A DNA stretch of 29,535 nt, from contig JAFUQL010000091.1 in NCBI GenBank assembly GCA_017472375.1, forward strand, positions 1-29,535. The letters are read 5' to 3'. Below are positions 1 through 21,237 of this stretch, piece by piece (the first letter of the stretch is position 1; every line of letters begins with the position of its first letter). A program made the translations under genes and the position numbers. The stretch is from Oscillospiraceae bacterium (GTDB taxonomy: Bacteria; Bacillota; Clostridia; Oscillospirales; Ruminococcaceae). The notes under the pieces were generated by a model. It worked only from the letters and a program-made list of their open reading frames with translations, had not been told where the DNA came from and searched no databases.

Positions 1-501
1 AAACACCAGCATCAGCAGGATGGCCGAGGTGAGCTGCCGGGGGCCCACCCGGTAGGCGCTCTCCCGTGTCAGCCACTGGCAGACCGTCAGGGCCAGTACT
101 CCCGTCACCGCACCGTAAAAGACAAAGCCGATGGGAATGTAGTACCAGCCCAGCGGCAGCCTGCCGCCGAGGAAGTAACAGAAGATCAGCCAGCACTCCA
201 TGGTGAGCTGGTGGGAGGTGATGATCCATGTGGTGCCGTACAGCGCCTGCGCCGGGGTGGTCTCGCAGCAGGCCAGCGTCAGGCAGAACACACCCACACT
301 GTAGGCGAGCACCTCCAGCCATCCGTAGGGCGCAGGAAGCAGCCGCCCGGTCAGCCCAAAGACCAGTACAAGGGCCAGTGCCATGCCCATGCGCAGGCGG
401 TAGCGCCGCCGGTGCCTCAGCGGGCCGAAGAACGCCAGGCAGGAGCCCGCCAGCGTCAAATGCATACAGAAGGGCGCGGTGAGGGTATACCACTGTTCCA
501 T
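1..501 (-). CDS. Membrane sensor histidine kinase (AgrC/GHKL-type), N-terminal part; runs off the window edge
   Basis: Manual translation from ATG 501 is open for 167 codons to the edge (MEQWYTLTAPFCMHLTLAGSCLAFFGPL...), with multiple hydrophobic helices. The ATG overlaps the stop of the LytTR regulator (TGATG). The kinase domain is not visible, so the product is inferred from context. Confidence 0.7.
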   Translation of the reverse strand, partial: MEQWYTLTAPFCMHLTLAGSCLAFFGPLRHRRRYRLRMGMALALVLVFGLTGRLLPAPYGWLEVLAYSVGVFCLTLACCETTPAQALYGTTWIITSHQLTMECWLIFCYFLGGRLPLGWYYIPIGFVFYGAVTGVLALTVCQWLTRESAYRVGPRQLTSAILLMLVF

Positions 502-1208
502 CAGCCGCCGCCTCCCACATAGTCGGTCAGGGCAGCCATGAAAGCATTCTTGTTGCGGCGGCTGATCTGCAGCTCCGCGCCAGCCACCACCGCCGTATCC
601 TTCTGCACCTTGGTAACGTACATCAGGTTGACCAGATACCAGTAGTTGCACCGCACGAAATGATAGGGCGCCAGTTCGGCCTCAGCGGCCTGCAGGGTGC
701 CCCGCACGGCAAATTCCCCCAGTTCGGTGTGGTAGCGCAGCACACCGTTCTGCACCTCCACATAGCGGATCTGCCGGGTCTCCAGCCGCACCGCACCGTC
801 GCTCAGGCGCAGCACCACCTGGCCGGAAGCCTGGCGCTGTACCATCTGCACGGCCTTCTCCAGCTTGGTGGAAAAGGTGAAGTAATTGATGGGCTTGAGG
901 ACATAGTCCAGCGCCCGCACCGAATAGCCCCGGATGGCATACTGGGCCAGATTGGTGATGAACACCAGCACCACCTCGCTGTCCCACGCGCGGATCTGCT
1001 CGGCGGCGTCCATGCCGTTGACCCCAGGCATCTCAATGTCCAGAAAGATGATGTCGTAGATGGGACGGTACCGGTCCAGGATCTCTGCACCGTCGCTGAA
1101 CAGGGACACCTGCAGCTCGGTGCCGTTCTCCTTCTCATAGCGCAGCAGGAAGTCGTGGATCTGCCCGCGCATCTCAGCGCTGTCCTCCACCACGGCGATG
1201 CGAAGCAT
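501..1208 (-). CDS. LytTR-family two-component response regulator (235 aa)
   Basis: Receiver motifs IAVVEDS, FLDIEMP, FITN, DYVLKP, plus a C-terminal LytTR domain (IRYVEV...FVRCNYWYLVNL...ISRRNK). Start set at MLRIAVV, 7 nt after GGAGG. Confidence 0.93.
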   Translation of the reverse strand: MLRIAVVEDSAEMRGQIHDFLLRYEKENGTELQVSLFSDGAEILDRYRPIYDIIFLDIEMPGVNGMDAAEQIRAWDSEVVLVFITNLAQYAIRGYSVRALDYVLKPINYFTFSTKLEKAVQMVQRQASGQVVLRLSDGAVRLETRQIRYVEVQNGVLRYHTELGEFAVRGTLQAAEAELAPYHFVRCNYWYLVNLMYVTKVQKDTAVVAGAELQISRRNKNAFMAALTDYVGGGG

Positions 1209-1238
1209 GGTCATCCCTCCCGTCGATTCGTTAACAAT

Positions 1239-1268: not shown

Positions 1269-1326
1269 CCGGCGATGGGCATTCTGCCCGAAAGTGTCCA
1301 CCGCGCTGTGCCTTCGATACAAACAG

Positions 1327-1358
1327 CGATCCCCCGGGCCGTGCGGCCCGGGGGATCG
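1327..1358. terminator. GC-rich hairpin after the ROK gene, probable terminator
   Basis: Perfect inverted repeat CGATCCCCCGGGCCG-tg-CGGCCCGGGGGATCG. The long T-tract is on the plus side and the minus-side tract is weak. Confidence 0.6.
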
Positions 1359-1381
1359 TTTTCTTTTTTCAGGGAACTCGT

Positions 1382-2623
1382 TCAGTCTTCCGCCTGCTTC
1401 GGGGGCTCCGGCAGGCCGCCGGCGGCCAGCAGCAGCTCGTTGACCACCACGGCCAGCGGCCCGATGTGTCCGATGCTGTCGTTCAGATGCGACTTGCGGA
1501 TGTAGCACTCGTTGTAGGCAGGGTCATACTGGCGGCACACCTGCAAAAAGCGCTCCCAGACGTGGGGCAACTGGAACATATCTCCATAGACCACCACTGC
1601 ATCCGGCGCCAGGAAGGTCACCGAATGGCACAGGGTACAGGCCACCGATTCAATGACCTCGTCCATGGCCTGCCACATCCCGGCATCCTGCACCTGGCCC
1701 CACCAGCCGATGTTCCGGGCGCGGATCTCGCTCACATCCCCGGCCACCAGTTCATACAGGGCGGGCATGGTCTCAGGCGTACAGCCCGCGGCCACCCGCT
1801 CCGCAATGGCGTGCACCGAGGCGATGGTCTCCAGGCAGCCGTAGCGCCCGCAGCGGCAGCGCCGCCCGTCCTTGACCACCCGCACATGACCCAGCTCGCC
1901 CTCCTTGGACTTGTGGCTCTCATACACAGCGTTCTGGATGATCATGGCGGAGCCCACGCCGGGGCCCCACTTGAGGAACATCAGATTCTCCCGCTTGCGG
2001 CCCACGCCGTACACCAGCTCGGCCTCGGCAAACGCTTTGACGTTGTTTTCCACCACCATGGGGTACTTCAGGTACTTCTGCAGCTCGCCGACCACATCCA
2101 CCGGTCTCTCCCAGACACGGTAGGCAGACTGGCTGATGCCCCGCTTCCGGTCCACCGGGCCGGGCACCGACACGCCCACGCCCAGGATCTTCTCCCGGGG
2201 GATGCCCATCTCCCACATCAGCACCTTGCTCTCGTTGGCGATGGCCTTGAGGAACTCCTCCGGCTCGGCCTGCGGGTTGGTCTTGATGGTGCGCTCGGTG
2301 CGGTCGTCGCCCTTCAGGTCGCTCACCGACACCACCGTGGCGGTGGCCTCGATGCAGATGGACAGCACATAGCGGCAGGTGTAGTCGATGCCCACCAGGA
2401 TCTTTCTGCGCCCGGCGCGGCGACCCTCCTGCAATTCGCCCTTCTCCTGCAGGATGCCCGCAGCGATCAGCTCGGTGCAGATGAGGGTGACGGTGGCCGG
2501 GGTGAGGCCCAGCTTTTCAGCCAGATCCTTCCGGGACATGGCGCCCTGCTCGTTCAGCAGCCGCAGGATCGCACTGCGGTTGTTGTATTTTACATTTTCA
2601 AGATTGATGCCGGTATGTGCCAC
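1382..2623 (-). CDS. ROK-family transcriptional repressor (XylR/NagC-like), probable regulator of the SQ cluster
   Basis: N-terminal HTH (SRKDLAEKLGLTPATVTLICTEL), ROK motifs VENNVKAFAEAE and GPGVG, and the Zn motif GELGH...CRCGRYGCLE. Confidence 0.93.
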   Translation of the reverse strand: MAHTGINLENVKYNNRSAILRLLNEQGAMSRKDLAEKLGLTPATVTLICTELIAAGILQEKGELQEGRRAGRRKILVGIDYTCRYVLSICIEATATVVSVSDLKGDDRTERTIKTNPQAEPEEFLKAIANESKVLMWEMGIPREKILGVGVSVPGPVDRKRGISQSAYRVWERPVDVVGELQKYLKYPMVVENNVKAFAEAELVYGVGRKRENLMFLKWGPGVGSAMIIQNAVYESHKSKEGELGHVRVVKDGRRCRCGRYGCLETIASVHAIAERVAAGCTPETMPALYELVAGDVSEIRARNIGWWGQVQDAGMWQAMDEVIESVACTLCHSVTFLAPDAVVVYGDMFQLPHVWERFLQVCRQYDPAYNECYIRKSHLNDSIGHIGPLAVVVNELLLAAGGLPEPPKQAED

Positions 2624-2696: not shown

Positions 2697-2721
2697 ATTG
2701 GGCAAAGGCAGACAGTGTCAA
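2692..2721 (-). promoter_or_regulatory. Sigma-A promoter of the ROK gene
   Basis: Minus strand TTGACA (2721-2716), 18-nt spacer, TATACT (2697-2692). Confidence 0.65.
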
Positions 2722-2787
2722 GCGCTCCCACGCTTTATCATAGTGAATTCGCAAACTTCACATCTTTTAAAATCGTCTTTTGCACGA

Positions 2788-2826
2788 AAAAAAGCCGCAG
2801 AAACACGAAGTCTCTGCGGCTTTTTT
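2788..2826. terminator. Intrinsic (bidirectional-type) terminator ending the SQ catabolic operon
   Basis: AAAAAAGCCGCAGA-loop-TCTGCGGCTTTTTT with A/T tracts on both sides. Confidence 0.8.
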
Positions 2827-2889
2827 CAAACTTTGGGGAAAAATCCCGCTCACGCGGTCAGCATTTTGCCCGGAACGAAAATTCTGCGC

Positions 2890-4230
2890 TTAGTAGCGGC
2901 AGATCTCCATGCCCAGCATATTGCCCAGCTTCTCCAGCTCGTTGGCCACGTCGGCGTAGACCACCACGAAGTGGGGCTCCCAGCCGGCCTTGATGGTGCC
3001 GTAGACAACATCCTTGGCGGGGGCGTCGGTCTTGACCACGATGGAGGTGCCGTTGAACTGACGGGGCTTGTCCAGGGCAGCACCCTTGGCGATGAAGAAA
3101 CGGAAGCCGCCGTCGGGCTTGCGGCCCACACGGAAGACGGTCACGTTCTCGCAGGGCTCACAGCCGAAGTCCATCACGGGGCCGATCTTGCGGTTGGGAT
3201 GCACACCCACCTGAGCGCCGGTGTCCTTCCGGGCCAGGTTGCAGGCGGCCATGCCGCAGTGCCAGTAGGTGATGGTGCCTTCCTTCTCGTCCATGGACAC
3301 GGGGTCGCCGAAGAAGGTAGACTTGCCGCTCAGCTTCTGGCCGATGAACATGGACAGGGCGCCGTACACGTCAGCCTCGCAGCTGGCGGAGATGCCGTTC
3401 TTGTTCAGCAGGCTCAGAACAGTGCAGACGGGGGTGCCGAAGGACACGAAGAAGTCGGGCCAGCAGCGGCTGCTCAGGGCGCCGATGCCGTTCTCCGCCA
3501 CATAGGCCTTGTAGGCCTTGTACAGGCGGGCAAAGTCCACCACGTTCTTCTCGGGGGTCTGGTCCAGACCGCAGACGGTGTCGTTGGCCTCGGCCATCTC
3601 CTCGGCGCAGTCGGTGAACTCGTAGCCCTTGGCCTTCTCGATCAGCTCGCGGGCCTCGATGGCCTCCAGCGTGACACCGAAGGTGCTCATCAGTTCGGCG
3701 TCCAGCGCACGGCCGAAGCCGAAGCCCTGGGGGGTGTGGCCGATGGCGGCCATCTTCAGGCTCTTCAGCGCGACCATGGTCTCGGCGGCGCGGATGGCGG
3801 CGCCGATCTCGGCCTTCACCTCGGCCTCGCCGGGGGCGCCGAAGATGTACTCAAACTGGCCGTCCTTGCGGAAGGCATGGATGGCGTTGGCCGCGGAGTA
3901 AGCGCCGGTCAGGCTGTTCAGGCGCAGGCGGCCGCCGTCGATGACGGGCTCGCGCAGGGTCCACAGCACAACGGGGCAGTCGAAACGCTTCAGCACCTCG
4001 CTGGCATAGGCAGCGTTGGCGAAGGTCACGTTCTGCAGCACCACCAGATCAGGGTCGATGGTGTCCAGATAGGCGGCCAGCTCCTGCACGGTCAGCAGGA
4101 CCTTCTCGGGGTAGACGCAGGCACCGGACAGCTCGCTCAGCATCGCGACAGACTTGTCGAACTGATCCTGGGCGCTCTCCATGTGGTAAGTGCCTACGCC
4201 GATGGGAATGTAAGCAACCTGAAAGCCCAT
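2890..4230 (-). CDS. sftI: Sulfoquinovose isomerase (FucI/AraA-like fold; SqvD/SftI type)
   Basis: Motifs REP..GGRLRLNSLTG, CWPDFF, SCEAD, WHCG and GVHPNRK match my recollection of Bacillus SqvD, and the gene sits in the SQ cluster. Start set at ATG 4230 after AAGGTGA. Confidence 0.82.
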   Translation of the reverse strand: MGFQVAYIPIGVGTYHMESAQDQFDKSVAMLSELSGACVYPEKVLLTVQELAAYLDTIDPDLVVLQNVTFANAAYASEVLKRFDCPVVLWTLREPVIDGGRLRLNSLTGAYSAANAIHAFRKDGQFEYIFGAPGEAEVKAEIGAAIRAAETMVALKSLKMAAIGHTPQGFGFGRALDAELMSTFGVTLEAIEARELIEKAKGYEFTDCAEEMAEANDTVCGLDQTPEKNVVDFARLYKAYKAYVAENGIGALSSRCWPDFFVSFGTPVCTVLSLLNKNGISASCEADVYGALSMFIGQKLSGKSTFFGDPVSMDEKEGTITYWHCGMAACNLARKDTGAQVGVHPNRKIGPVMDFGCEPCENVTVFRVGRKPDGGFRFFIAKGAALDKPRQFNGTSIVVKTDAPAKDVVYGTIKAGWEPHFVVVYADVANELEKLGNMLGMEICRY

Positions 4231-4284
4231 AGTTATCACCTTTTCCTTGTCAGTTTTTTCAGTGGGGGAACGATCCGCAGCAGA

Positions 4285-5847
4285 TCAGCCCTCGGCGGCA
4301 GCGGCGTCGGCGGCGGCGTGCTCGGCAGCCATCTCCTTCTCCTGCTGGGCGTTCAGAGCCTCGATCTTCTTGTTCAGCTTCATCATGGAGACGACCAGAA
4401 CCACGGTGATGATCAGGATGACGGCAGAGATGGGACGGCGCACGAAGACGGTCACATCGCGGTCGTAGCTCATCATGGCGGTCACGAAGTTGGCCTCCAT
4501 GATGGACTCCAGGATCATGCCCAGCATCAGCGGGGTGTTGTCGATCTTCAGCAGGTTCAGCAGGTAGCTCAGCCACAGGATGACAACGGTCAGGATCAGC
4601 TCCTTGGTGTTGCCGGTGGCGGCATAAGCGCCGGCGAAGCAGAACATGATGATGCAGGGGGCCAGCAGGGTGTACTTCACCTGCACGATCTTGGCCACAG
4701 CGCGGGTCAGGACCTTACCGATGGGGTACAGCAGGATGTTGGCGATCAGACAGCCGATGATGATGGAGTAGGCCATGGGGCCCTGCTTGGTGAACATCGT
4801 GGGTCCGGGCTGGATGCCGTGCAGAATAAAGGCGCCCAGCAGCAGAGCGGTGACACCGTCACCGGGGATGCCCAGGGTCAGCAGGGGGATCATGGCAGAA
4901 CCGACCACGGCGTTGTTGGAGGACTCAGCCGCGGCGATGCCCTCCAGGCAGCCCTTGCCGAAGTTCTGGGGCTGCTTGGAGATGCGGCGGGCCTCGTTGT
5001 AGCACATGAACTGAGCCACACCGCCGCCGACGCCGGGCATGGCGCCGATGATGGAAGCGATGACCGAGGAGTACAGGGTGGCAGGCATGATGCTCTTGAT
5101 CTCCTTGCCGGTCAGACCCTCGTTGTCGATCTTGTTGGCGTCGTCCAGATGGCCGTCGGACAGCTTGAACTCACGCAGCTTGTCGGCCACCTGAGTCAGA
5201 GCGATCAGGGCGATCATGGCGGGCAGCATGTCGATGCCGTACTTCAGGATGTCCAGACCGAAGCCGTAACGGGTGACGCCGGTGACGGCGTCCATGCCGA
5301 TGCAGGCCATCAGCAGGCCCAGGCAGCCGGAGATGATGCCCTTGGCCAGGCTGTCACCGGACACGCCGGCGATCAGGCTGATGCCCAGGATGCCCATGGA
5401 GAAGTATTCGACGGAGGTGAAGCCGGCCACCAGCTTGGTGATGGGGGAAGCGCACAGCAGCAGCAGGATGGCAGAGAACAGACCGCCGAAGGTGGAGGCG
5501 AACAGAGAGGTATCCAGCGCCTTCTTGACCTTGCCCTTCTTGGCCAGAGGATAGCCGTCGAAGGTGGTGGCGATGGCGGAGTTGGTACCGGGGGTGTTCA
5601 GGGTGATGGCGCTGATGGAGCCGCCGTACATACCGCCAACGTAAACGGCCAGCAGCAGGATGATGGCGGTATCTGCGTTCTCAAAGGTGTAGGTCAGGGG
5701 CAGCATCAGGATGATGCCGAGGGTAACGCTCAGGCCGGGAATGCAGCCGATGACCATGCCGATCACCAGACCGATGAAGATGGTCAGGATGTTGCTGACG
5801 GTGAACACCATGCCGAGGGCCTGGGAAATCATCTGAAAATCAGTCAT
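4285..5847 (-). CDS. tctA: Tripartite tricarboxylate transporter large permease
   Basis: 520-aa polytopic protein with TctA motifs GMYGGSISAITLNTPG, AAESSNNA and PLLTLGIPG. Confidence 0.93.
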   Translation of the reverse strand: MTDFQMISQALGMVFTVSNILTIFIGLVIGMVIGCIPGLSVTLGIILMLPLTYTFENADTAIILLLAVYVGGMYGGSISAITLNTPGTNSAIATTFDGYPLAKKGKVKKALDTSLFASTFGGLFSAILLLLCASPITKLVAGFTSVEYFSMGILGISLIAGVSGDSLAKGIISGCLGLLMACIGMDAVTGVTRYGFGLDILKYGIDMLPAMIALIALTQVADKLREFKLSDGHLDDANKIDNEGLTGKEIKSIMPATLYSSVIASIIGAMPGVGGGVAQFMCYNEARRISKQPQNFGKGCLEGIAAAESSNNAVVGSAMIPLLTLGIPGDGVTALLLGAFILHGIQPGPTMFTKQGPMAYSIIIGCLIANILLYPIGKVLTRAVAKIVQVKYTLLAPCIIMFCFAGAYAATGNTKELILTVVILWLSYLLNLLKIDNTPLMLGMILESIMEANFVTAMMSYDRDVTVFVRRPISAVILIITVVLVVSMMKLNKKIEALNAQQEKEMAAEHAAADAAAAEG

Positions 5848-5853
5848 AATCCA

Positions 5854-6327
5854 TTAACCTCCCATAAAGAACGGCACGTCAGGCAGCGAGATGTAGAACA
5901 CATACTTGAACAGGTAGTAGATACCGATCGCAGCCGCAGCGGTAAAAATATAGATGCCAGGTTTGCGCTCGCCGCAGTACCACAGCACGATGGCGAAGAT
6001 GATGATGGAGGCCACCACGAAGCCCAGCATGATGATGCCGATGGCGTACAGAGTGATCAGGGTGATGATGAAAAGCATGGGCTTTTCCTTCTCCCAATCA
6101 AAAACGGTGATGTTCTCCTTCTTGAACACCAGGCTCTGAATGATCAGGATCGCAGAGCAGATCAGAATGCCGGTGATGAAGATGGTGGGCAGCAGACGGG
6201 GAGAGGGAGCGCCGGAATCATACGCAGGCAGACGGACCTGGCTCTCCATGGTGAAGAACATGAACAGAGCGAAGGCGCCCATGATGATGCCGGACCACAG
6301 GTAGGTCTTGATGTTGAATTTCTTCAC
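5854..6327 (-). CDS. tctB: Tripartite tricarboxylate transporter small permease
   Basis: 157 aa, about 4 TM segments, SPRLLP motif, C-terminal FKYVFYISLP. GTG start with RBS GAAAGGA, directly upstream of tctA. Confidence 0.88.
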   Translation of the reverse strand: MKKFNIKTYLWSGIIMGAFALFMFFTMESQVRLPAYDSGAPSPRLLPTIFITGILICSAILIIQSLVFKKENITVFDWEKEKPMLFIITLITLYAIGIIMLGFVVASIIIFAIVLWYCGERKPGIYIFTAAAAIGIYYLFKYVFYISLPDVPFFMGG

Positions 6328-6403
6328 GAGAAACTTCCTTTCCTGAATCTAGCAGTTCCTTCAAAATATTGCGGACATTTTGCATTTGCGCAAAATACGG
6401 CGA

Positions 6404-6446
6404 TAACGTGACCGGCGGGCCGAGGAACGACCCACCAGCCACGTTA
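6404..6446 (-). other. 19-bp RNA stem-loop in the tctC-tctB spacer
   Basis: Minus strand TAACGTGGCTGGTGGGTCG-ttcct-CGGCCCGCCGGTCACGTTA is fully paired, using 4 G-U wobbles that exist only on this strand. Confidence 0.65.
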
Positions 6447-6655
6447 CCACCTTATTGAGAGAGGAAACAGGCAATTTTATTGCGGAGGTACGCGGTTTCT
6501 GCCGGGCTGCCCCGGCGCCGCACCGCAGTGTGTGCCACAGAAGCCTTTGCCGCTTCGGATGCGCTCGAAGCGCCGCCGGCATCCTGCTGCACACATCCCG
6601 GTGAGGGCCGCAGGCAGCTTCGGCAGCAGCCGCCTATCCCCGGGAGCTTCCGCCC

Positions 6656-6683
6656 TGCCCGGCCGCATCACTGCGGCCGGGCA
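6656..6683. other. Perfect 12-bp hairpin downstream of tctC (mRNA stabiliser or attenuator)
   Basis: TGCCCGGCCGCA-tcac-TGCGGCCGGGCA, with no long U-tract. Confidence 0.6.
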
Positions 6684-6776
6684 TAACGGAGGGTCCCACT
6701 CGTCTGCCCATGTGACCAACAGGTCTCTCAGGCACCGCGCACGGTCAGGTCAGACGAGCCACGCGGAAGGAATTGG

Positions 6777-7820
6777 TTAGGCAGACAGGTTGTCGAACGC
6801 GGCAACAGCCTTGGCACAAGCCTCGTCGTAGAAGGCGACAGCCTCATCGCCGTACAGCTCGAAGCGGTTCAGCATGACGCTCTCGATCCACTCGTGGTAC
6901 TCAGCGTCGGCCCAGACAGCCTTGGTGACCTCGGTCATGGCGTCGATGAAAGCCTGATCAGCACCGGCACGGACAGCCAGAGAGCCGCCGGCAGGCAGGA
7001 TGCAGCTGGAGAAGTCGATGCTGGGATCCAGCTCGGGAGCCTTGGCGTCGCCAGCAACGGTGGGAACGGTGATGGGGCCCTCAGGAGTGACGAAGCCCTC
7101 GAAAGCGCGGTCGTTGAAAGCCAGGATGGGGATCAGAGTGCCAGCCTCGACCTCCTCCATGGCGGCCTGGGTGGTGCCCATGAAGACGTCGACCTCGCCG
7201 TTGACCAGGCCCTGCTTCTGAGCAGCGCCGCCGTCATAAGGCACGACCATAACGTTGCCGCCCATCAGAGCGCACAGGGAGCCCAGCTCCAGGTGGCAGT
7301 CAGACAGGGGGTTGCCGCCGGACATCTTCAGGGTGCCGGCCTTGGCCTTCTCCAGGATGGACTCCAGGGTCTGGTCGGGGGTGGTGTACAGGATCCAGGT
7401 ACGGTCGTCCACGGTGCCGATGGGGTACATGGCGTCGCGGTCGAACTCGACGATCTCGGTGCCGTACTCCTTGCCCAGGTCATGGCGGTAGCACAGGCCG
7501 TAGCCGAACACCAGCAGCTCCTTGGCGGAAGCATCCAGATCGGCGAAGTAGGTAGCGGCAGCGAAGCCGTCACCGCCGGTCATGTTCTCGACGATGAAGT
7601 TGTACTCGGGGTACAGACGGTTGGCCACGACCGCATACTTGCGGGCGATCAGGTCGGCGGTGCCGCCGACGCCGTAGCCGCAGATGATCTTGATGGTCTC
7701 GCCGTTGGGGTTGCCGCCGGTCTCGCCGCCAGCAGCCTCAGAAGAAGCAGCGCCGCCGCCACAGGCGACCAGGGACAGGGCCAGCACCAGAGCCAGCACA
7801 AGTGCGATGAGCTTTTTCAT
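6777..7820 (-). CDS. tctC: Tripartite tricarboxylate transporter substrate-binding lipoprotein (TctC/Bug family)
   Basis: Lipobox LVAC, and Bug-like motifs GYGVGGTADLIAR, VENMTGGDG and VPYDGGA...GEVD. Confidence 0.88.
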   Translation of the reverse strand: MKKLIALVLALVLALSLVACGGGAASSEAAGGETGGNPNGETIKIICGYGVGGTADLIARKYAVVANRLYPEYNFIVENMTGGDGFAAATYFADLDASAKELLVFGYGLCYRHDLGKEYGTEIVEFDRDAMYPIGTVDDRTWILYTTPDQTLESILEKAKAGTLKMSGGNPLSDCHLELGSLCALMGGNVMVVPYDGGAAQKQGLVNGEVDVFMGTTQAAMEEVEAGTLIPILAFNDRAFEGFVTPEGPITVPTVAGDAKAPELDPSIDFSSCILPAGGSLAVRAGADQAFIDAMTEVTKAVWADAEYHEWIESVMLNRFELYGDEAVAFYDEACAKAVAAFDNLSA

Positions 7821-7894
7821 TGTTTGATCCTCCGTTTTTTTGTTTTATTTCGACAGCAGAGGGTGCTCAGCCCTCTGATAACGAACAAAGGGGA

Positions 7895-9904
7895 TTATTT
7901 GCCGTGCTTGGCACGGATCTGCTCCATCAGGCCGGCCACCTTGCTGCCCTTCTTGTAGAAGACGGGGACAGAACCGATGGGGGCGGGGACGGTGCAGGTG
8001 CCGTGGCCGTACTCAGCGCCGGACCACAGATGGATCCAGCCGTCGCTGGGCAGGTAGACCTCACGGTCGGTCTGGGCTTCCTGCCAGACAGGGGCCACCA
8101 GAACGTCCTCACCCAGCAGGTACTCGAACTGCTCGGTGTAGCTGCGCTCGTCGGCCTCGTTGTGCAGGAACAGGGGACGCTGGACGGGGATGCCGCGGGC
8201 GGCGTTCTCGGCCACCAGCTCCTTCAGGTAGGGCATCAGCATCACATGGATGTCCACCAAGCGGGCGGTCTCTGCCATGCAGTCCGCGTCGTCGTAGTAC
8301 TGGAAGTTGGTGTCAGGGCGGTTGCCCTCGTGAGTGCGCATCACCGGGGTGAAGGCAGCCATCTCGGTCCACCGCAGGAACACTTCCTTGGTGCGCAGGT
8401 TGTCGAACAGCGAGGTGTAGCCGCCGATGTCGCTGTGGTTCAGGCCGCAGCCGATCATGCCGGCGCTCAGGGTGCCGCAGATGGTGGTGCACAGGCCGTC
8501 GTGACGGCTCAGGTCCACAGACTGGTCGCCGTTCCACAGCAGGGTGCAGTACTTCTGGCTGCCGGTGGCGCCGGCGCGCATGAAGTAGACCACATCGCCC
8601 AGCTTGCCGCTCTCGTTCACCGCGTCGTAGTTGCACTTGGCCCACAGGGCAGGCCAGTGGTTGTGCTCGATCATGGCGGAGACGCCGTTGTGCAGCACGA
8701 TGTCATCGGTGGGCAGGTACTCACCGAAGTCGGCCATCCAGCCGTCAATGCCGATGTCGATGCTGTGCTTCTTGATGACCTCGTCCTTGAACCACTCATA
8801 GGCCTCGGGCTTGGTGAAGTCGATGACACCGCAGTAGAACTCGCCGAAGTCCACCAGGTAGATGCTGCCGTCCGCCTTCTTGGCGAAGACGTCCTTCTCA
8901 AGGCCCTCCTGGTAGAGCTTGCCGCCCTGCACCAGGTAGGGATTGATGTAGCCCATGAAGCGGATGCCCCGGTCGTGCAGCTTCTGGATCTCACCGGGCA
9001 GGTCGGGATACATCTCCTCGTGGAAGTGCCAGTCCCACTGCAGGCGCTTGCCGAAGCTGGTCACGCGCTTGCCGCACCAGTCCTGGCACCACACGGCGGC
9101 CACCTTGATGCCGTTCTCGATGGACTTGTCCACCAGGCCGAAGGAGCGCTCGTTGCCGCCCTGCACGCCCACGATCAGACCGTTGTAGATCCAGTCGGGC
9201 AGTTCGGGCTGGCGGCCCAGATGGGCGGTCAGCTTCTCCAGCAGTTCCACGAAGGTGTCCGCGCCTTCGATGCGCACACTGGCGGGCACAGCCCACATCT
9301 GCAGCTCATGGAAGGTCTCGTCGCGGAAATCGAAGTCCGCGTAGGCGGTGCAGTCCACATCCACATAGTAGCGCTTGCTGCTCACGAAGGTGGGCTGGGG
9401 GTAGTTGGTGTTGTAGTAGTCGCCGCCGGCGCCGCCGTTTTCCACGTCGGAACGCCAGGTGACGTAGGTGGTCTTGTCGCGGCCCACGCCGGGCTCGCCG
9501 GTCCACAGGGGGAAGTGCCGGCCGCGCAGATCGAAGTAGGACATCTGCTCGCCGCAGCCGTAGCAGTGCTCGTCCTTGTCGGCGCGCACGCGCAGCCAGA
9601 AGCGGTTGATCTGCTCGTCCTTCTGAACAAAGTTCAGGGTGACGCACTCGCCGTCCTGCTTCACGGCCATGGTCAGGGCATCGCCCATCTCCACGGTCAG
9701 GCCCTCGGCGGTCTCCTCGATGGAGGTGATCTCCACCGGGCGGCGCTCGATGACGTAGTCCTCGATCTTGAAGTTGCCGCGGTACATATCCACGGTCTCT
9801 TTGCCGTAGCCCACATAGATCATGGGGTTGGCTTTGGTATGCTCCAGAATGGTGTGCTCACCCTTTTTCAGGACAAACTCCATCCCGTTGCGGATGATCT
9901 GCAT
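7895..9904 (-). CDS. yihQ: Sulfoquinovosidase, GH31 (YihQ/SftG type), 669 aa, no signal peptide
   Basis: Catalytic WMADFGE and WNGDQ, plus the SQase sulfonate-pocket signature QDWCGKRVTSFGKRLQWDW and HSDIGGY. RBS GAGGAGG precedes ATG 9904. Confidence 0.92.
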   Translation of the reverse strand: MQIIRNGMEFVLKKGEHTILEHTKANPMIYVGYGKETVDMYRGNFKIEDYVIERRPVEITSIEETAEGLTVEMGDALTMAVKQDGECVTLNFVQKDEQINRFWLRVRADKDEHCYGCGEQMSYFDLRGRHFPLWTGEPGVGRDKTTYVTWRSDVENGGAGGDYYNTNYPQPTFVSSKRYYVDVDCTAYADFDFRDETFHELQMWAVPASVRIEGADTFVELLEKLTAHLGRQPELPDWIYNGLIVGVQGGNERSFGLVDKSIENGIKVAAVWCQDWCGKRVTSFGKRLQWDWHFHEEMYPDLPGEIQKLHDRGIRFMGYINPYLVQGGKLYQEGLEKDVFAKKADGSIYLVDFGEFYCGVIDFTKPEAYEWFKDEVIKKHSIDIGIDGWMADFGEYLPTDDIVLHNGVSAMIEHNHWPALWAKCNYDAVNESGKLGDVVYFMRAGATGSQKYCTLLWNGDQSVDLSRHDGLCTTICGTLSAGMIGCGLNHSDIGGYTSLFDNLRTKEVFLRWTEMAAFTPVMRTHEGNRPDTNFQYYDDADCMAETARLVDIHVMLMPYLKELVAENAARGIPVQRPLFLHNEADERSYTEQFEYLLGEDVLVAPVWQEAQTDREVYLPSDGWIHLWSGAEYGHGTCTVPAPIGSVPVFYKKGSKVAGLMEQIRAKHGK

Positions 9905-9939
9905 TGCAGTGCCCTCCTCAGAGTTTGATTTGGGGATGC

Positions 9940-10605
9940 TCAGTACTTCAGCTCCTTGTTCTCGCCCAGCAGGCCGGGGAACGCGCCCTGTTTGATCAGG
10001 GGCTCGCGCTCGGGGTGGGCGATGACCCACTTGTTGCGCTGCAGCAGGAGCTTTGCCTCGCCCTCGGGGATGTCCTCACCGTGGGGCCAGGGGGTGTTGG
10101 TGCCGCGGGGCAGCACCACGATGCCCTTGAAGCCCTCGTCGCACACGCGGCAGGGGGACAGGTGCAGGGTGGTCTGGTACATCTCGATGGCGGTGCCCTT
10201 CTTCACGAAGAAGGGCCGGGCGTCCTCCACCCGGTAGGTGCCGTCCTTGATGAGCCAGCTGTGGCCCAGCACCAGCATGAAGTCGGTGACAGCGATGTTG
10301 ATCTCGCTGCCCTTGTGGTACTCGAAGCCGTTGTAGGTGGTGTTGCGGCCGTTGCAGTAGCCGATCTGGATGGGCATGCCGCCGTACAGAACGTTCTGCA
10401 TCCGCTCGAACACGGGGTCGGCCTCCATCTCGGGGACGGAGGGGACGTAGACGTTGCCGTTCTCGGGGATAGAGGTGTTCTGCTCCATGTGGGCGATCAG
10501 ACCGGAGAAATCGTACCCGGTGACCACCCGGCCGTAGGGAGCGAACGCCTCATCGAACACCGACAGCACCTTCACGTCGTTGACCTGATTCAGACGCTCG
10601 ATCAT
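9940..10605 (-). CDS. sftX: DUF4867 cupin-like protein (SftX type), function unknown
   Basis: Motifs FAPYGRVV, QIGYCNGRN, EYHKGSEIN, LHLSPC and LLQRNKWVIAHPE, in the position expected for sulfo-TAL clusters. Start set at ATG 10605 after GAGGTG. Confidence 0.8.
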   Translation of the reverse strand: MIERLNQVNDVKVLSVFDEAFAPYGRVVTGYDFSGLIAHMEQNTSIPENGNVYVPSVPEMEADPVFERMQNVLYGGMPIQIGYCNGRNTTYNGFEYHKGSEINIAVTDFMLVLGHSWLIKDGTYRVEDARPFFVKKGTAIEMYQTTLHLSPCRVCDEGFKGIVVLPRGTNTPWPHGEDIPEGEAKLLLQRNKWVIAHPEREPLIKQGAFPGLLGENKELKY

Positions 10606-10617
10606 GCCGTTCACCTC

Positions 10618-11478
10618 TTACTTCTGGTCACGGACGACCTTGTAGGTGGCGCAGAAGTCCTCTTTGCCGTAGCCGGCAGCCAGGGCATCCTGGTAGACGC
10701 GCTGCACGTTGGCCTCACCGGGCATGCTCACGCCCATCTCGGCGGCCAGGCTCATGCAGATGTTGATGTCCTTGGCCATGTTCTCGATGGAGAAGGCAGT
10801 GGTCCAGTCCTCGGCGGCGATGGGGGCGTTCTTGGTGTCCAGATAGAAGCACTGGCCGCCGCCGTAGCTGATGGCGGTGGCGAAGGTCTTGGGATCGATG
10901 CCGAACTTGGAGGCCAGCACCAGGTTCTCGTTGACGCCGTTCTGGATCTGGCCGACCATGGCGTTGTGGCAGATCTTCATGACCAGGCCCTTGCCGTTGT
11001 CGCCCATGCGGATGACGTTGTTGCCCATGTACAGCAGGATGGGACGCATGGCCTCGTAAACGGCCTCGTCGCCGCCCACATAGATGCCCAGAACGCCGGC
11101 GATGGCGGCGGGCTTGGACTTCACGACGGGAGCATCGATGAACTGAGCGCCGGTGGCCTTGACCATCTTGCTGATCTCAACGGAAACGCTGGGATCGATG
11201 GTGCTCATGTCGATGCAGGTCTTGCCCTCGCCCAGCACGGGCAGGATCTCCTTGTACACGGACATGGAGTGCTCGCTCTTCGGGACCATGGAGATGATGA
11301 CGTCGGAAGCCTTGGCCAGCTCCACAGAGCTCTCGCAGCCCACGGCGCCCTTGCTCACCAGCAGGTCGATCTTCTCCTTCACGAAGTCAAAGACATAGAC
11401 GGTGTCGTCATGCTTCTTGACGATGTTCTCGCTCATGGACTCGCCCATGATGCCCAGACCGATAAAACCGATTTTCAT
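10618..11478 (-). CDS. sftR: Beta-hydroxyacid dehydrogenase family; probable 3-sulfolactaldehyde reductase (DHPS-forming)
   Basis: IGFIGLGIMG Rossmann motif, catalytic KICHN, substrate loop DAPVVKS instead of the generic DAPVSGG, and cluster context. Confidence 0.8.
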   Translation of the reverse strand: MKIGFIGLGIMGESMSENIVKKHDDTVYVFDFVKEKIDLLVSKGAVGCESSVELAKASDVIISMVPKSEHSMSVYKEILPVLGEGKTCIDMSTIDPSVSVEISKMVKATGAQFIDAPVVKSKPAAIAGVLGIYVGGDEAVYEAMRPILLYMGNNVIRMGDNGKGLVMKICHNAMVGQIQNGVNENLVLASKFGIDPKTFATAISYGGGQCFYLDTKNAPIAAEDWTTAFSIENMAKDINICMSLAAEMGVSMPGEANVQRVYQDALAAGYGKEDFCATYKVVRDQK

Positions 11479-11519: not shown

Positions 11520-12206
11520 TTACTCGGTGGCGGTGTTGTCCCAGGCGTTGATGAAGGTCTTCAGACCCTGATCGGTGTAGGCATGCTTGATGCAATCCTG
11601 GTACACAGCCAGACCGGTGGTGACGATGTCGGCGCCGGCAACAGCGCAGTCCACGATCTGCTTGGGAGTACGGACAGCGGCGCAGATGATCTCAGTCTTG
11701 CCGTAGAAGCCGTAGTTCTTGTAGATGTCAACGATGTTCTGGATGTAGGTCTTGCAGTCCTCGCCGTTGGCCTCCTTCCAGCCGATGAAGGGGGACACGA
11801 ACAGGGAGCCGTTCTTGGCGGGCAGGATAGCCTGAGCGGGGCTGAAGATCAGGGTGACGTTGGTGCGGATGCCCATGGCCTCCAGCTTGCGGGCGGCGGT
11901 GACACCGGCCTCGGTGCAGGGGATCTTGATGACGAAGTTGGGGCTGATGGGGGCGATCTCCTGAGCCATGGCGACCATCTCATCGGCGTCGTCCAGATGG
12001 GGGTTCAGCTCGACGGACACGGGGAACTTCTCGTAGCCCTCCAGGCCCTCCTCCTTGATCCAGTTGGCGATGTCGGTGATGGCAGTCTTGAAGGGCTTGC
12101 CGCTCACCATGATGTGGCGGGGGTTGGTGGTGACGCCGTCGATGCCGAAGGTCTCGTAAGCGTACTTGATCTCGTCCAGCTTAGCGCTATCCAGGAAAAA
12201 TTTCAT
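11520..12206 (-). CDS. sftT: 6-deoxy-6-sulfofructose transaldolase (SftT/SqvA type), 228 aa
   Basis: TAL/FSA fold with Schiff-base IKIP. TTNPRH (Arg), SPFIGWKE (Trp) and AAVR match the sulfonate-binding residues I recall for Bacillus sulfofructose transaldolase. RBS GAGGAGG. Confidence 0.9.
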   Translation of the reverse strand: MKFFLDSAKLDEIKYAYETFGIDGVTTNPRHIMVSGKPFKTAITDIANWIKEEGLEGYEKFPVSVELNPHLDDADEMVAMAQEIAPISPNFVIKIPCTEAGVTAARKLEAMGIRTNVTLIFSPAQAILPAKNGSLFVSPFIGWKEANGEDCKTYIQNIVDIYKNYGFYGKTEIICAAVRTPKQIVDCAVAGADIVTTGLAVYQDCIKHAYTDQGLKTFINAWDNTATE

Positions 12207-12318
12207 TGGTGTTTCCTCCTCGATTTCTTCTCTCAACAGGTTTGTAGGCGAACGTTTGCGGATGATCATGGGTGGATGTTCGGACGTGTTCGGGGGAATC
12301 CAGGCCGCGCGGCACTTC

Positions 12319-12344
12319 ATTGTTAATTTTATAAATTAATCAAT
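12319..12344. promoter_or_regulatory. AT-rich palindrome in the operon leader, candidate second operator
   Basis: ATTG-TTAATTT-tat-AAATTAA-t-CAAT shares the TTAATCAA half-site with 12506-12526. Confidence 0.45.
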
Positions 12345-12442: not shown

Positions 12443-12471
12443 ATAATATAGCCAAAATGCACATGTGTCAA
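12443..12471 (-). promoter_or_regulatory. Sigma-A promoter of the sulfo-TAL operon
   Basis: Minus strand TTGACA-17 nt-TATTAT. Confidence 0.75.
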
Positions 12472-12749: not shown

Positions 12750-13919
12750 TCAGCTGTCCGCTGCCGGTGCATCGGTCTCGGCTGCAGCCAGCGCCTGCTC
12801 ATGCTCGTGCAGATCCCGGCGGAGCATCTGGTAGATCGCCGCCGCGATGGGCACACCCAGCAGCATGCCGGCCACGCCCATCAGGCCGCCGCCGATGGTC
12901 ACCGCAGCCAGCACCCACACGCCGGGCAGGCCGATGGAGCTGCCCACCACGCGGGGATAGATCAGGTTGCCCTCCAGCTGCTGCAGCACCAGGATGAACA
13001 CAATGAACCACACCGCCTGAATGGGGGAGACGGTGAGGATCATAAAGGCACCCACCGCCGCGCCGATGTAGGCGCCCGCCACCGGGATGAGGGCGGTGAA
13101 GCCCACCAGCGTGCCCACCATGGCCGCATAGGGGAAGCGCAGCAGGGTCATGCCCGCCATACACAGCAGGCCCAGCACCACCGCTTCCATGCACTGGCCC
13201 ACGATGAACTTGCGGAAGCACTCGTTCAGGGTGCGCAGCACATAGCGCAGCCGCCCCGCCCACAGTTCGGGCAGGAAGCGCCGGGTCAGCCGGTCGAACT
13301 GGTTCAGCAGGGTCTCCTTGCCCACCAGCAGGTACAGCGCAAAGATGAGCCCGATGACCACGGTGGTCACCACCCCCGCTGCGGAGGACACCGCGCTGAC
13401 CGCCACCTGGGCCGCACCGCCCACGCCCTCCAGCAGGGTCTTGGCCAGTTCGGTCAGCCGCTGCTGCCAGTCCACCTTGGCCAGCGAGGTGGCCAGCTCC
13501 TCGGCAGACAGGGCCTCAGCCACGCCGCTCTCCTGCAGCCACAGGCCCAGATCCTTCAGCGCAAGGGGGATCTCGGCCATCAGCAGACGGATGGCCGCCA
13601 TCAGCTCGGGGACCACCAGCAGCACCACCAGCAGGATCACCGCCACAAAACTGAGCAGCGCCGCCACGATGCACACCGCCCGCCGCAGTTTCTGCGCCGT
13701 CCGCCCCTTGAAGGGGTAGTGCCGCTCATAAAAGCTCATCAGGATGTTCAGCAGGTAGGCCATGACCACGCCCACGATCAGCGCCTCGGCCGAAGCCAGC
13801 GCCGCCCCGCCCAGCGTGATCAGCCCATCCCAGTAGTGAATGGCCAGATACAGCAAAAATACGCTCACCCCGACCCGGATGCAGCTCTTCCATTCGATCT
13901 TCATTTGATATGGATCCAT
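12750..13919 (-). CDS. AI-2E family transporter (PerM-like)
   Basis: Polytopic protein with LIPVAGAYIG and QQLEGNLIYPRVVGSSIGLP...GMLLGVP motifs. Start uncertain (13919 or 13904). Confidence 0.9.
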   Translation of the reverse strand: MDPYQMKIEWKSCIRVGVSVFLLYLAIHYWDGLITLGGAALASAEALIVGVVMAYLLNILMSFYERHYPFKGRTAQKLRRAVCIVAALLSFVAVILLVVLLVVPELMAAIRLLMAEIPLALKDLGLWLQESGVAEALSAEELATSLAKVDWQQRLTELAKTLLEGVGGAAQVAVSAVSSAAGVVTTVVIGLIFALYLLVGKETLLNQFDRLTRRFLPELWAGRLRYVLRTLNECFRKFIVGQCMEAVVLGLLCMAGMTLLRFPYAAMVGTLVGFTALIPVAGAYIGAAVGAFMILTVSPIQAVWFIVFILVLQQLEGNLIYPRVVGSSIGLPGVWVLAAVTIGGGLMGVAGMLLGVPIAAAIYQMLRRDLHEHEQALAAAETDAPAADS

Positions 13920-14042
13920 CCTGCCCGCAGCCGCAGGCCTCATAAAATCGCTCTCACAGTGTCATTATACCGCCGCAGCCACCGCGTAAAAACCAACAAA
14001 CCCTGTGCAGTGTGAAACAACGCCGCAGCCGGGGCCGGCCGC

Positions 14043-15326
14043 TCACTTTTTGCGGCCGGTGCGGGGCTTTGCCCGCTGGGGCGGCTGCCCCTGCGCTGCG
14101 TGCCGGCCCGCCAGCAGGCCGGTGCCGAAGGCCCAGTGCAGATTGTACCCGCCGCAGCTTCCTGCGCAGTCCAGCGTTTCGCCCACAAAGTACAGGCCGG
14201 GGCAGCCCCGCAGCCCGAAGCTCTCCGGCTCCACCTCGCTGAGCGCAATGCCGCCGCCGGTGGTCTGCGCCTGGTTCCAGCCCACCGGCTGCAGGCCGGT
14301 GAACCGCCAGTCGGTGAGGCCCCGGGCAAGCCGCAGCCAGTCTTCGCCGCGCAGCTCTGCCGCCGGGCGGGTGTCCGCGCCGAGCCCGCAGGCCTTCCAC
14401 ACCGCCAGACCCACCCGACGGTTCACAAGGCCGGTCGTGTAGCCGGCGGCGGTGACCCCGGGCAGGGCCTTCGCCCGGGCCGCAAGGCGCGCGGCCAGCG
14501 CATCCGTCTCCTCCCCGGGGAACAAGTTCAGCGAGATCTGCCGCTCCACCGGCTTCCCGCCGGGGCGCAGCAGGCCGGACAGCTGCATCACCGCGATGCC
14601 CGACAGCCCGTATTCGGTGAACTGCACCTCACCCCGCTCGGTGCGCAGGGGGCGGCCGTCCGCCAGCAGGGTCGCATCACCCTTGACCCGGATGCCCGCC
14701 AGACCCTGCACCTGCTTTTTCTCGCACTGCAGCGGCACCAGGCAGGGGTATAGGGGCTCGGTGCGCAGGCCGCACTGCCGGGCCAATTCAGGGCCAAACC
14801 CGTCGGTGCCAAACTGGGGCCCGGCGCTGCCGCCCAGGGCACAGATGACCGCATCCGCCCGCAGGCTCTCACCCCCGGCCAGCCGCACTGTGTAGCCCTC
14901 CCGCTGCTGGCGCAGCTCCTGCACGGCACAGTCGGTGCGCACCTCCACGCCGGTGCGCTCCAGCCAGTCCAGCAGCAGATTCAGCACGTCCGCTGCCTGG
15001 TTGGAGTAGGGGTAGATGCGCCCCGCCTCGTCCGGCTCCCGGCACCACAGCCCGTGGGCGGCGAACCAGCCCAACGGGTCGGCCTGTTCCACCGCCGCAA
15101 GGCAGGCGGCCAGCGCCTTCCGGTCGGCGGAGAAATACCAGCCCGCATCCCGGTGGGCGTTGGACAGATTGCACCGCCCGTTGCCGGTGGCAAGCAGCTT
15201 CTTGCCCACCCGGGCGTTGCGCTCCAGCAAGGTCACCCGGGTGCCCGCCGGGGCAGTCTCCGCCGCTGCGACGGCCGCCGCGATGCCCGCTGCGCCGCCG
15301 CCCAGAATGAGGATGTGTCTTGCCAT
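14043..15326 (-). CDS. HI0933/YhiN-family FAD-dependent oxidoreductase
   Basis: ILGGGAAG, GKKLLATGNGRCNLSN, TTGGGI and GETLDCAGSCGGYNLHWAFGTG motifs. Confidence 0.92.
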   Translation of the reverse strand: MARHILILGGGAAGIAAAVAAAETAPAGTRVTLLERNARVGKKLLATGNGRCNLSNAHRDAGWYFSADRKALAACLAAVEQADPLGWFAAHGLWCREPDEAGRIYPYSNQAADVLNLLLDWLERTGVEVRTDCAVQELRQQREGYTVRLAGGESLRADAVICALGGSAGPQFGTDGFGPELARQCGLRTEPLYPCLVPLQCEKKQVQGLAGIRVKGDATLLADGRPLRTERGEVQFTEYGLSGIAVMQLSGLLRPGGKPVERQISLNLFPGEETDALAARLAARAKALPGVTAAGYTTGLVNRRVGLAVWKACGLGADTRPAAELRGEDWLRLARGLTDWRFTGLQPVGWNQAQTTGGGIALSEVEPESFGLRGCPGLYFVGETLDCAGSCGGYNLHWAFGTGLLAGRHAAQGQPPQRAKPRTGRKK

Positions 15327-15365
15327 GATGCGCCCGCCTTCCCTGGTCGTTTCTTTAATATAGGT

Positions 15366-15395
15366 AGTATAGCACAGGAACGCCGGACGGCTCAA
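15366..15395 (-). promoter_or_regulatory. Putative sigma-A promoter of the HI0933 gene
   Basis: Minus strand TTGAGC-18 nt-TATACT with an extended -10 TG. Confidence 0.45.
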
Positions 15396-15438
15396 TGGTG
15401 GACTCTGCCGCCTTTTTCGCCCGCCGCCCCAGACATAC

Positions 15439-15469
15439 AAAAGCCCCGGCTCCATCGCGAAGCCGGGGC
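15439..15469 (-). terminator. Intrinsic terminator after pepD
   Basis: GCCCCGGCT/AGCCGGGGC stem followed by TTTT on the minus strand. Confidence 0.7.
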
Positions 15470-15476
15470 AGGGAAG

Positions 15477-16913: not shown

Positions 16914-16939
16914 TGTTGTCGCTCCTTTTCATAAACTGC

Positions 16940-17284
16940 TCAGGGCCGCAGGACGAACCCGTCCGGGCCGTCCTTTTGGATGTACTGCTGGTCCAGCAGG
17001 AAATCGATGACCTGCGGGGCAAATTCCGCGCCGTTCTGCACGGTCAGGCTCTTGCGCGACCAGAACTGCCGCACCCGCACGCCGGTGATCACCCCGGCCA
17101 CCTGTGCTTTGGTGATGCGCCCGTGCTTTTTCAGGTGCTTCACCACACGGCTGCCGCAGGCGCTCAGCAGGTTCCGGGTCATGTCCTCGCCCTGATCCAG
17201 CGCCTTTTTCATGCCCCACACATAGAGCACCGCCGTGGCCGCGGCGAACATCGCCACACCCAGCAGGATCTGTCCGATGGTCAT
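16940..17284 (-). CDS. Hypothetical protein, N-terminal TM helix plus wHTH-like soluble part (114 aa)
   Basis: ATG overlaps the upstream stop (ATGA), residues 5-23 are hydrophobic, and codon usage matches the neighbours. The wHTH-like fold is my inference. Confidence 0.7.
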   Translation of the reverse strand: MTIGQILLGVAMFAAATAVLYVWGMKKALDQGEDMTRNLLSACGSRVVKHLKKHGRITKAQVAGVITGVRVRQFWSRKSLTVQNGAEFAPQVIDFLLDQQYIQKDGPDGFVLRP

Positions 17285-17640: not shown

Positions 17641-17657
17641 TTGCTGCCATTCTCCTT

Positions 17658-17696
17658 AAAAAAAGCCGGGCCATATACCCAAGTATACAGCCCGGC
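17658..17696 (-). terminator. Intrinsic terminator or attenuator between the OPT and PqqD genes
   Basis: Minus strand 14-bp stem GCCGGGCTGTATAC-ttgg-GTATATGGCCCGGC (2 G-U) followed by T7. Confidence 0.75.
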
Positions 17697-17719
17697 GGTC
17701 GTTTGGTAAAGGGGTTTGC

Positions 17720-19618: not shown

Positions 19619-19752
19619 GATTGATTCTCCTAATTTTTTATTCTTTGACGCTCCATGGAAGAAGCGTCCTGTCTCTGTGCGGCCGCCGCGCCCGTCTCAC
19701 ACTGCGGACGGAGCGGCTTTGCACAGGGAACACAGAGTTTTGGGGCGGCGCC

Positions 19753-21224: not shown

Positions 21225-21237
21225 GGGAGGGGCGGCC

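Follow-up and report, generated by a model that had tools for sequence, protein, structure and literature searches.

A tripartite tricarboxylate transporter embedded in a sulfoglycolysis operon of an Oscillospiraceae bacterium: a candidate importer of sulfoquinovose and sulfoquinovosyl glycerol

The 29,535-nucleotide contig JAFUQL010000091.1 of an Oscillospiraceae bacterium (assembly GCA_017472375.1), analysed here over its full length and called the window, carries on its minus strand one operon for the use of the plant sulfosugar sulfoquinovose (SQ), in which the three genes of a tripartite tricarboxylate transporter (TTT), tctC, tctB and tctA (TctCBA), are embedded. The genes follow each other in the order sftT, sftR, sftX, the sulfoquinovosidase gene, tctC, tctB, tctA and sftI, and are succeeded by the gene of a ROK-family regulator (Table 1). 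The gaps between them measure 3 to 74 nt, except for 449 nt between tctC and tctB and 266 nt between sftI and the regulator gene. A preliminary description of this DNA, made from the sequence alone, had placed tctC-tctB-tctA between the sulfoquinovosidase and the SQ isomerase on one strand, and had proposed that they encode an importer of SQ or SQ-glycerol. Our annotation confirms this arrangement and its coordinates, and the proposal is supported by comparative genomics, namely by linkage in 80 related loci and by the occurrence of the transporter in two types of SQ pathway.

Table 1. Positions of the genes and other features of the SQ operon in the window
Feature	Position	Strand	Basis or remark
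Promoter-like site, TTGACA - 17 nt - TATTAT, 11/12 consensus matches	12443..12471	-	Upstream of sftT; consensus match only
sftT, sulfofructose transaldolase	11520..12320	-	PF00923; best solved relative B. megaterium SF transaldolase 8bc3
sftR, beta-hydroxyacid dehydrogenase (HIBADH family)	10618..11478	-	PF03446 + PF14833; sulfolactaldehyde reductase by context
sftX, DUF4867 protein of sulfo-TAL clusters	9940..10614	-	PF16161, 255 bits
sftG/yihQ, cytoplasmic GH31 sulfoquinovosidase	7895..9907	-	PRK10426; solved YihQ; no hydrophobic segment
tctC-like lipoprotein, solute-binding subunit, 347 aa, lipobox Cys20	6777..7820	-	Profile search and predicted fold
Structured tctC-tctB spacer	6328..6776	-	RNA fold; terminator-like 20-bp hairpin at 6402-6448
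tctB, small membrane subunit	5854..6327	-	PF07331, 62 bits; hydrophobic segments found
tctA, large membrane subunit	4285..5847	-	PF01970, 447 bits, full model length; ~11 hydrophobic segments
sftI/sqvD, sulfoquinovose isomerase	2890..4239	-	Sole NCBIfam match NF048012 (SftI)
ROK-family transcription regulator (winged helix + ROK domain)	1382..2623	-	Own promoter-like site at 2692-2721
Two-way terminator-like hairpin after ROK gene	1325..1360		Terminator-like site

The genes other than those of the transporter make this a complete sulfoglycolysis operon of the transaldolase type. SftT scores 290 bits against the solved sulfofructose (SF) transaldolase of B. megaterium, versus 167 bits against the best ordinary transaldolase; its homology starts at residue 39 of the open reading frame (ORF), so that the true start probably lies near position 12206. 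SftR reaches 152 bits on the YihU model, below the cut-off of 348, and is assigned as sulfolactaldehyde reductase by context, from its conserved position in the cluster. The sulfoquinovosidase gives 965 bits on NCBIfam PRK10426, a model built on Escherichia coli YihQ with a cut-off of 553, scoring 787 bits against solved E. coli YihQ itself and 787–799 bits against the solved E. coli and Agrobacterium enzymes. Its ORF is open to position 10030, and homology begins at the methionine at 9907. A hydrophobic segment is absent from its N-terminus, and its alignment with the solved relative 6pnr starts at residue 1 of the latter, which agrees with the earlier statement that the enzyme lacks a signal peptide. 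SftI has an E value of 1e-126 and 423 bits on its only NCBIfam match, below the 700-bit equivalog cut-off.

The membrane subunits TctA and TctB are full matches to their Pfam families, and their genes recur in the related loci (tctB in 77 and tctA in 75 of the 80). The binding protein requires more discussion: it had been called TctC in the preliminary description, and although its score stays under the Pfam TctC cut-off, the name is upheld by a profile search, by the predicted fold and by the adjacent tctB and tctA. When a profile built from an alignment of 20 relatives was compared with the solved TctC proteins, the best match was the terephthalate binder TphC (E 5e-13), followed by TBP, AdpC and BugD. 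The AlphaFold model of the window TctC has a predicted local distance difference test score (pLDDT) of 87.8, and in a Foldseek search of the Protein Data Bank (PDB) TctC/Bug proteins take all of the first 17 places (E 1e-17 to 1e-12, target-normalised template modelling (TM) score 0.72–0.87, 16–20% identity). The predicted two-domain fold thus places the window TctC firmly among the TctC/Bug binding proteins. It is the profile search and this fold, not the Pfam score, that establish its membership, and several close relatives do have a precomputed PF03401 match.

The same protein had been presented as a divergent TctC lipoprotein. Both features named at that time are there, the lipobox L-V-A-C, which ends at Cys20, and the motif G-Y-G-V-G-G-T-A-D (residues 48–56), but the motif is less divergent than was claimed. 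Cys20 is invariant in the alignment of 20 relatives, and binding proteins in Gram-positive-type cells are usually lipid-anchored (PMC5812351). The domain-1 signature of TctC proteins is P-F-x-A-G-G-x-x-D (PMC5812351). Its G-G and D are retained in the window protein, the P being replaced by G, and some members of the subfamily read P-Y-G-V-G-G-T-A-D. By its sequence, therefore, the anion-binding loop is modified rather than lost. Both anion-binding loops (residues 50–56 and 167–173) are conserved. A conservation comparison also yielded candidate pocket residues (G50, T54, T81, G83-D84, S167, G169, Q201, G242-F243 and G279), which are kept across the SQ-linked clade and are different in sister and generic TctC proteins.

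More than 350 relatives of this TctC came out of a search of 5.8 billion proteins; the best 120 listed, at 60–81% identity, bear names from Gemmiger, Lachnospiraceae, Butyrivibrio and Lacrimispora. Of 1.84 billion representatives at 50% identity no more than 14 fall below 1e-30, and then the matches drop to generic TctC proteins of about 30% identity, so that the subfamily is tight and isolated. By scanning one genome per species we found 86 loci, of which 80 were kept, and the neighbours of tctC within 10 kb were searched with the window proteins. The organisms concerned include Faecalibacterium prausnitzii, Clostridium symbiosum ATCC 14940, C. clostridioforme, Hungatella, Pseudobutyrivibrio, Oribacterium, Oscillibacter, Treponema, Cetobacterium, Epulopiscium and Tissierellia, and the genes stand mostly in one fixed order. 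A sulfoquinovosidase was found in 70 of the 80 loci, SftI in 68, SftX in 59, the ROK regulator, downstream of sftI, in 55, SftT in 52 and SftR in 49. Sulfoquinovosidase and/or SQ isomerase are present in 74 loci, and five of the six loci with neither lie on contigs shorter than 9 kb. Five loci without a nearby sulfoquinovosidase, two of those six among them, were traced in their genomes, and in four the enzyme lies elsewhere or at the contig edge. The sole full-length locus with a broken linkage to SQ genes belongs to Candidatus Epulonipiscium fishelsonii (L063, 9995-15224), which has no SQ genes within 10 kb and encodes a sulfoquinovosidase (63% identical) on another contig; its TctCBA genes are followed by that of an FGGY-family sugar kinase and preceded, on the opposite strand, by a glycerol-3-phosphate dehydrogenase gene.

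In a sample of 400 genomes, drawn evenly from the same class and including the window's own, a sulfoquinovosidase occurs in five and this TctC in two, both of them among those five. None of the 395 genomes without a sulfoquinovosidase has the TctC; if the window's genome is excluded, the figures, small as they are, become one of four versus none of 395. Thus, the linkage of this TctC clade to SQ genes is near-exclusive. The preliminary description had regarded homologues lying mostly outside SQ clusters as one outcome that would speak against it, and the co-occurrence found is the reverse. These results also bear on the view that TctCBA is an ordinary citrate-type carboxylate transporter that lies in the operon by chance. 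The TTT family is indeed best known for carboxylates, and the anion-binding loop signature is largely retained. However, the linkage to SQ genes extends across Lachnospiraceae, Oscillospiraceae, Treponema, Cetobacterium, Epulopiscium and Tissierellia, the TctC is absent from every sampled genome that lacks a sulfoquinovosidase, and the subfamily forms an isolated clade only 16–20% identical to the solved carboxylate binders. We therefore disfavour this view strongly, to the point of giving it hardly any weight.

The pathway types represented among the 80 loci are the transaldolase type (51), the transketolase type (8) and both together (1). The transketolase-type cluster comprises SqwG, SqwH, an RpiB-like isomerase, an iron alcohol dehydrogenase, and EamA or TauE (verified with Pfam for L070). 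The two nearest outlying full-length relatives of the TctC, 38% and 31% identical, lie in transketolase or mixed clusters and join the core group with a clade support of 100. TauE stands between the sulfoquinovosidase and tctC in 49 of the 80 loci, and EamA is found in five. Because TauE and EamA are separate exporters, TctCBA is not needed for export; and because one TctC clade serves clusters that make 2,3-dihydroxypropane-1-sulfonate (DHPS) as well as clusters predicted to make isethionate, mostly with exporters of their own, its cargo would be the input that they share, SQ or its glycosides.

It might be supposed instead that TctCBA carries, in either direction, a small molecule related to the pathway, either a sulfonate or a carboxylate (DHPS, sulfolactate, isethionate or a co-substrate), and no sugar at all. 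The known sulfonate cargos of TTT systems, sulfolactate (proposed) and sulfoacetate, are small acids, and the window operon is without the TauE that 49 relatives carry and has no gene assigned to DHPS export. Against this stand the presence of one TctC clade in clusters with different predicted end products, most of them with their own exporter, the role of binding-protein-dependent secondary carriers as importers (PMC5812351), and the lack of DHPS- or isethionate-degrading genes in the clusters. A small-acid cargo is thus very improbable.

As for export in the window, the operon contains neither the TauE exporter (SftE) nor the major facilitator superfamily (MFS) importer SftA. The 74-nt gap between the sulfoquinovosidase gene and tctC (7821-7894) is where TauE sits in the 49 relatives, and loci of the Pseudobutyrivibrio type likewise have no TauE there. 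The only TauE gene elsewhere in the window's genome, a 67%-complete assembly, is dissimilar to the cluster-type TauE, and no gene in this operon can be assigned to the DHPS export step. The statement that TctCBA is the only transporter in the operon is true of the operon itself, but 430 nt upstream of sftT the same strand carries an AI-2E family transporter gene (12750-13943, minus strand). We considered its product as a DHPS exporter and did not count it in the system, since it is absent from all 80 related loci; it is probably unrelated to the SQ cluster, while being a possible DHPS exporter in this organism.

No binding protein of an ATP-binding cassette (ABC) system was found in the 80 loci, and in the canonical gene order there is no space for a further importer. 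TctCBA is also the sole importer candidate of the cluster in C. symbiosum ATCC 14940 (L030), presumably the same strain as DSM 934. For C. symbiosum LT0011, fermentation of free SQ to DHPS is reported, its Sft proteins being induced, and the type strain DSM 934 is reported to ferment SQ too (PMC7491151). Judging from gene content and linkage, we put the probability that TctCBA is the uptake system of this sulfoglycolysis operon, importing SQ and/or sulfoquinovosyl glycerol (SQGro), at roughly 0.78.

Several points weigh against this assignment. The support for the cargo is comparative genomics, not biochemistry. The TTT cargos listed in a 2018 review (citrate, aspartate, glutamate, nicotinate, adipate, terephthalate, sulfolactate and predicted sugar diacids) mostly bear a carboxylate, and SQ has none (PMC5812351); sulfoacetate joined these cargos later. 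The window TctC reaches only 22.4 bits on Pfam PF03401, in a partial match over residues 147–229, where the cut-off is 27. The window's genome is a metagenome assembly, in whose missing part another importer could sit. The window occurs in four sequencing runs, all of them DNA runs from a single animal-gut study, and in no RNA run. Finally, a sulfo-transketolase cluster (L084:3923-21002) has two importers. One is TctCBA, here the 38% relative, with an aldose epimerase and the SQ isomerase as its neighbours; the other is an ABC system adjoining the sulfoquinovosidase. This layout suggests one carrier for free SQ and another for SQ glycosides, and the TTT system of that cluster may carry free SQ only.

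The last point leads to the question of whether TctCBA in general imports free SQ only, SQ glycosides entering by another carrier or going unused. Besides the division of genes in L084, growth on free SQ of a C. symbiosum that has this cluster (PMC7491151) is consistent with such a restriction, as is a metagenome-assembled genome that has the TctC and in which no sulfoquinovosidase was found (L035). However, in 70 of the 80 loci the sulfoquinovosidase is directly upstream of tctC or of TauE-tctC with no second importer present, and a cytoplasmic glycosidase needs its glycoside inside the cell. Published reasoning from co-occurrence with YihQ, by which binding proteins found together with that enzyme are treated as sulfoquinovoside carriers (PMC10507154), likewise favours sulfoquinovosides. 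A restriction to free SQ is accordingly unlikely, although it is the least improbable of the alternatives. Since the sulfoquinovosidase is cytoplasmic and directly upstream of tctC in most loci, the glycoside must enter the cell, and TctCBA probably carries both SQ and SQ-glycerol. The simplest reading, by analogy with SmoF (PMC8940949), is one in which recognition by TctC is directed at the SQ head group and a small aglycone is tolerated.

In the mechanism that we propose, the lipid-anchored TctC would capture SQ and/or SQGro outside the cell and hand it to the TctA/TctB membrane pair for import by ion-coupled secondary transport. The cytoplasmic sulfoquinovosidase would then release SQ from its glycoside, SftI would convert SQ to sulfofructose, SftT would move a C3 unit onto glyceraldehyde-3-phosphate, and SftR would convert sulfolactaldehyde to DHPS, to be exported by a carrier encoded outside this operon. 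Solved TctC proteins enclose an anionic group between two loops (PMC5812351), and a TTT binding protein, SauZ, is known to bind a sulfonate (sulfoacetate, Kd 0.13 µM; PMC10413351). By analogy, the sulfonate of the sugar probably sits between the two conserved anion-binding loops in place of the carboxylate. The reductive transaldolase route yields about 1 ATP per SQ, by the equation from SQ to pyruvate (PMC7491151), and an ion-driven carrier with a binding protein may offer high affinity while sparing the cell the ATP that an ABC system consumes, which would suit a low-energy fermenter. Dihydroxyacetone kinase genes (Dak1/Dak2) lie beside the TTT-bearing SQ clusters of five loci (L023, L025, L029, L035 and L076), a position that fits the use of glycerol released inside the cell from SQ-glycerol.

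TctCBA of the window is a known kind of transporter within a known pathway, and not a new kind of system. It shares with the canonical TTT systems (TctCBA for citrate, BugD/BugE, AdpC, MatC and TphC/TpiBA; PMC5812351; PDB 2f5x, 5oei, 6hke and 7ndr) the three genes, the full Pfam matches of TctA and TctB, the two-domain fold, and the G-G-x-x-D and E-N-x-x-G-x-x-G loops. It differs from them in the low identity of its TctC to the solved members and its score under the Pfam cut-off, in the lipid anchor of this protein in a Gram-positive-type organism, and in its predicted cargo, a sulfonated sugar without a carboxylate. SauXYZ, for sulfoacetate in Bilophila (PMC10413351), and SlcHFG, proposed for sulfolactate (cited in PMC5812351), are likewise TTT systems with a sulfonate-bearing ligand, encoded in clusters for organosulfonate breakdown. 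However, their ligands are C2 or C3 acids that also carry a carboxylate, and they belong to Proteobacteria and feed desulfonation pathways, whereas the window system is predicted to take a C6 sugar or glycoside and to feed sulfoglycolysis.

Compared with importers assigned to SQ, the window system occupies the importer slot of an sft-type cluster, as do SftA and YihO, the predicted SQ importers of the MFS or glycoside-pentoside-hexuronide (GPH) type in sulfo-transaldolase (sulfo-TAL) and sulfo-Embden-Meyerhof-Parnas (sulfo-EMP) clusters (PMC7491151). Those two belong to an unrelated family without a binding protein and are absent from the window operon and from the canonical order of the related loci. 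In SmoEFGH (PMC8795539, PMC8940949), as in the window, binding-protein-dependent uptake is co-encoded with a cytoplasmic sulfoquinovosidase, and SmoF accepts SQ and its glycosides, the behaviour predicted here for TctC; but SmoEFGH is an ATP-driven ABC system, with a binding protein of another fold class and other membrane proteins. SqoKLM and the systems of Roseobacter, proposed importers of free SQ (PMC10507154), resemble the window system in being binding-protein-dependent secondary transporters assigned from their genome neighbourhood, but they belong to the tripartite ATP-independent periplasmic (TRAP) class, not to TTT. It turns out that the importers named in reviews and primary papers are YihO/SftA (MFS), SmoEFGH (ABC) and TRAP systems. 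The earlier summary, MFS/GPH or ABC, therefore names two classes that the literature does contain and omits the TRAP systems also proposed (PMC10507154).

Full-text searches of the available literature brought up no paper that connects a TTT system with the uptake of SQ. The drawing of such clusters in Figure 5 of PMC7491151 includes 'transport systems', and these TTT genes have probably already been seen by others and not discussed as SQ importers. Each year about 10 billion tonnes of SQ are made (PMC12890257). SQ serves a few Firmicutes of the gut as a selective food, and the products of its breakdown supply the formation of hydrogen sulfide there (PMC8397734). Uptake is the least studied part of the SQ pathways: the ABC binding protein SmoF alone has been characterised, the MFS and TRAP candidates being predicted. 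TctCBA is of solid interest for research on both sulfoglycolysis and TTT transporters. If our assignment is correct, the first step is no longer missing from the clusters of Faecalibacterium prausnitzii, C. symbiosum, Enterocloster, Pseudobutyrivibrio, Oribacterium and rumen or gut Treponema, metagenomes can be scored for SQ use with a specific marker gene, and the known chemistry of the poorly understood TTT family comes to include a sugar sulfonate that has no carboxylate. The assignment may also account for high-affinity uptake by low-energy fermenters at no cost in ATP.

A sister branch of the SQ-linked TctC clade, about 30% identical and with a joint clade support of 99, is represented by L087:464-13821 and L089:60-6014, whose clusters hold two or three sulfatase genes; in L087 they are accompanied by a DUF4432 gene and by genes for ROK proteins and a formylglycine-generating enzyme. 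The TTT systems of this branch would seem to serve sulfated sugars or sulfate esters of a similar kind. A broader scenario is conceivable, and we offer it tentatively, as somewhat more doubtful than not. A lipid-anchored TctC clade of anaerobic Firmicutes and neighbouring phyla would have switched from carboxylates to sugars bearing a sulfur oxyanion. Its SQ/SQGro branch would be a main entry route in gut Clostridia, including Faecalibacterium and C. symbiosum, its sulfatase-flanked sister branch would take sulfated sugars, and the conserved 'pincer' loops would hold the -SO3 group in both.

Elsewhere in the window, at 501-1210 (minus strand) and 14043-22152, lie genes for a LytTR-type response regulator, an HI0933-like flavoprotein, an M20 peptidase, an OPT oligopeptide transporter, a Glu/Leu/Phe/Val dehydrogenase-like protein and a LysR regulator, none of which is conserved beside the SQ cluster in the relatives. 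Two long plus-strand ORFs opposite the operon were rejected as spurious antisense frames of DNA with a high G+C content. One, of 481 aa (1247-2692), mirrors the ROK regulator gene, which is the real gene on the minus strand, and gave misleading tblastn matches in 28 related loci; the other, of 1237 aa, spans 2698-6411.

The spacer between tctC and tctB, with its 449 nt, is longer in the window than in the relatives, where it measures about 100–340 nt. An Rfam scan of the spacer gave chance-level matches only and no family, and a second copy was not found in the window's genome. Its predicted RNA fold has an energy of -247 kcal/mol (z = -9.8 against shuffles) and includes several long near-perfect hairpins, among which the terminator-like one is followed by a T-rich tail. 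This hairpin may end or stabilise part of the transcripts, by which more binding protein than membrane subunits would be made.

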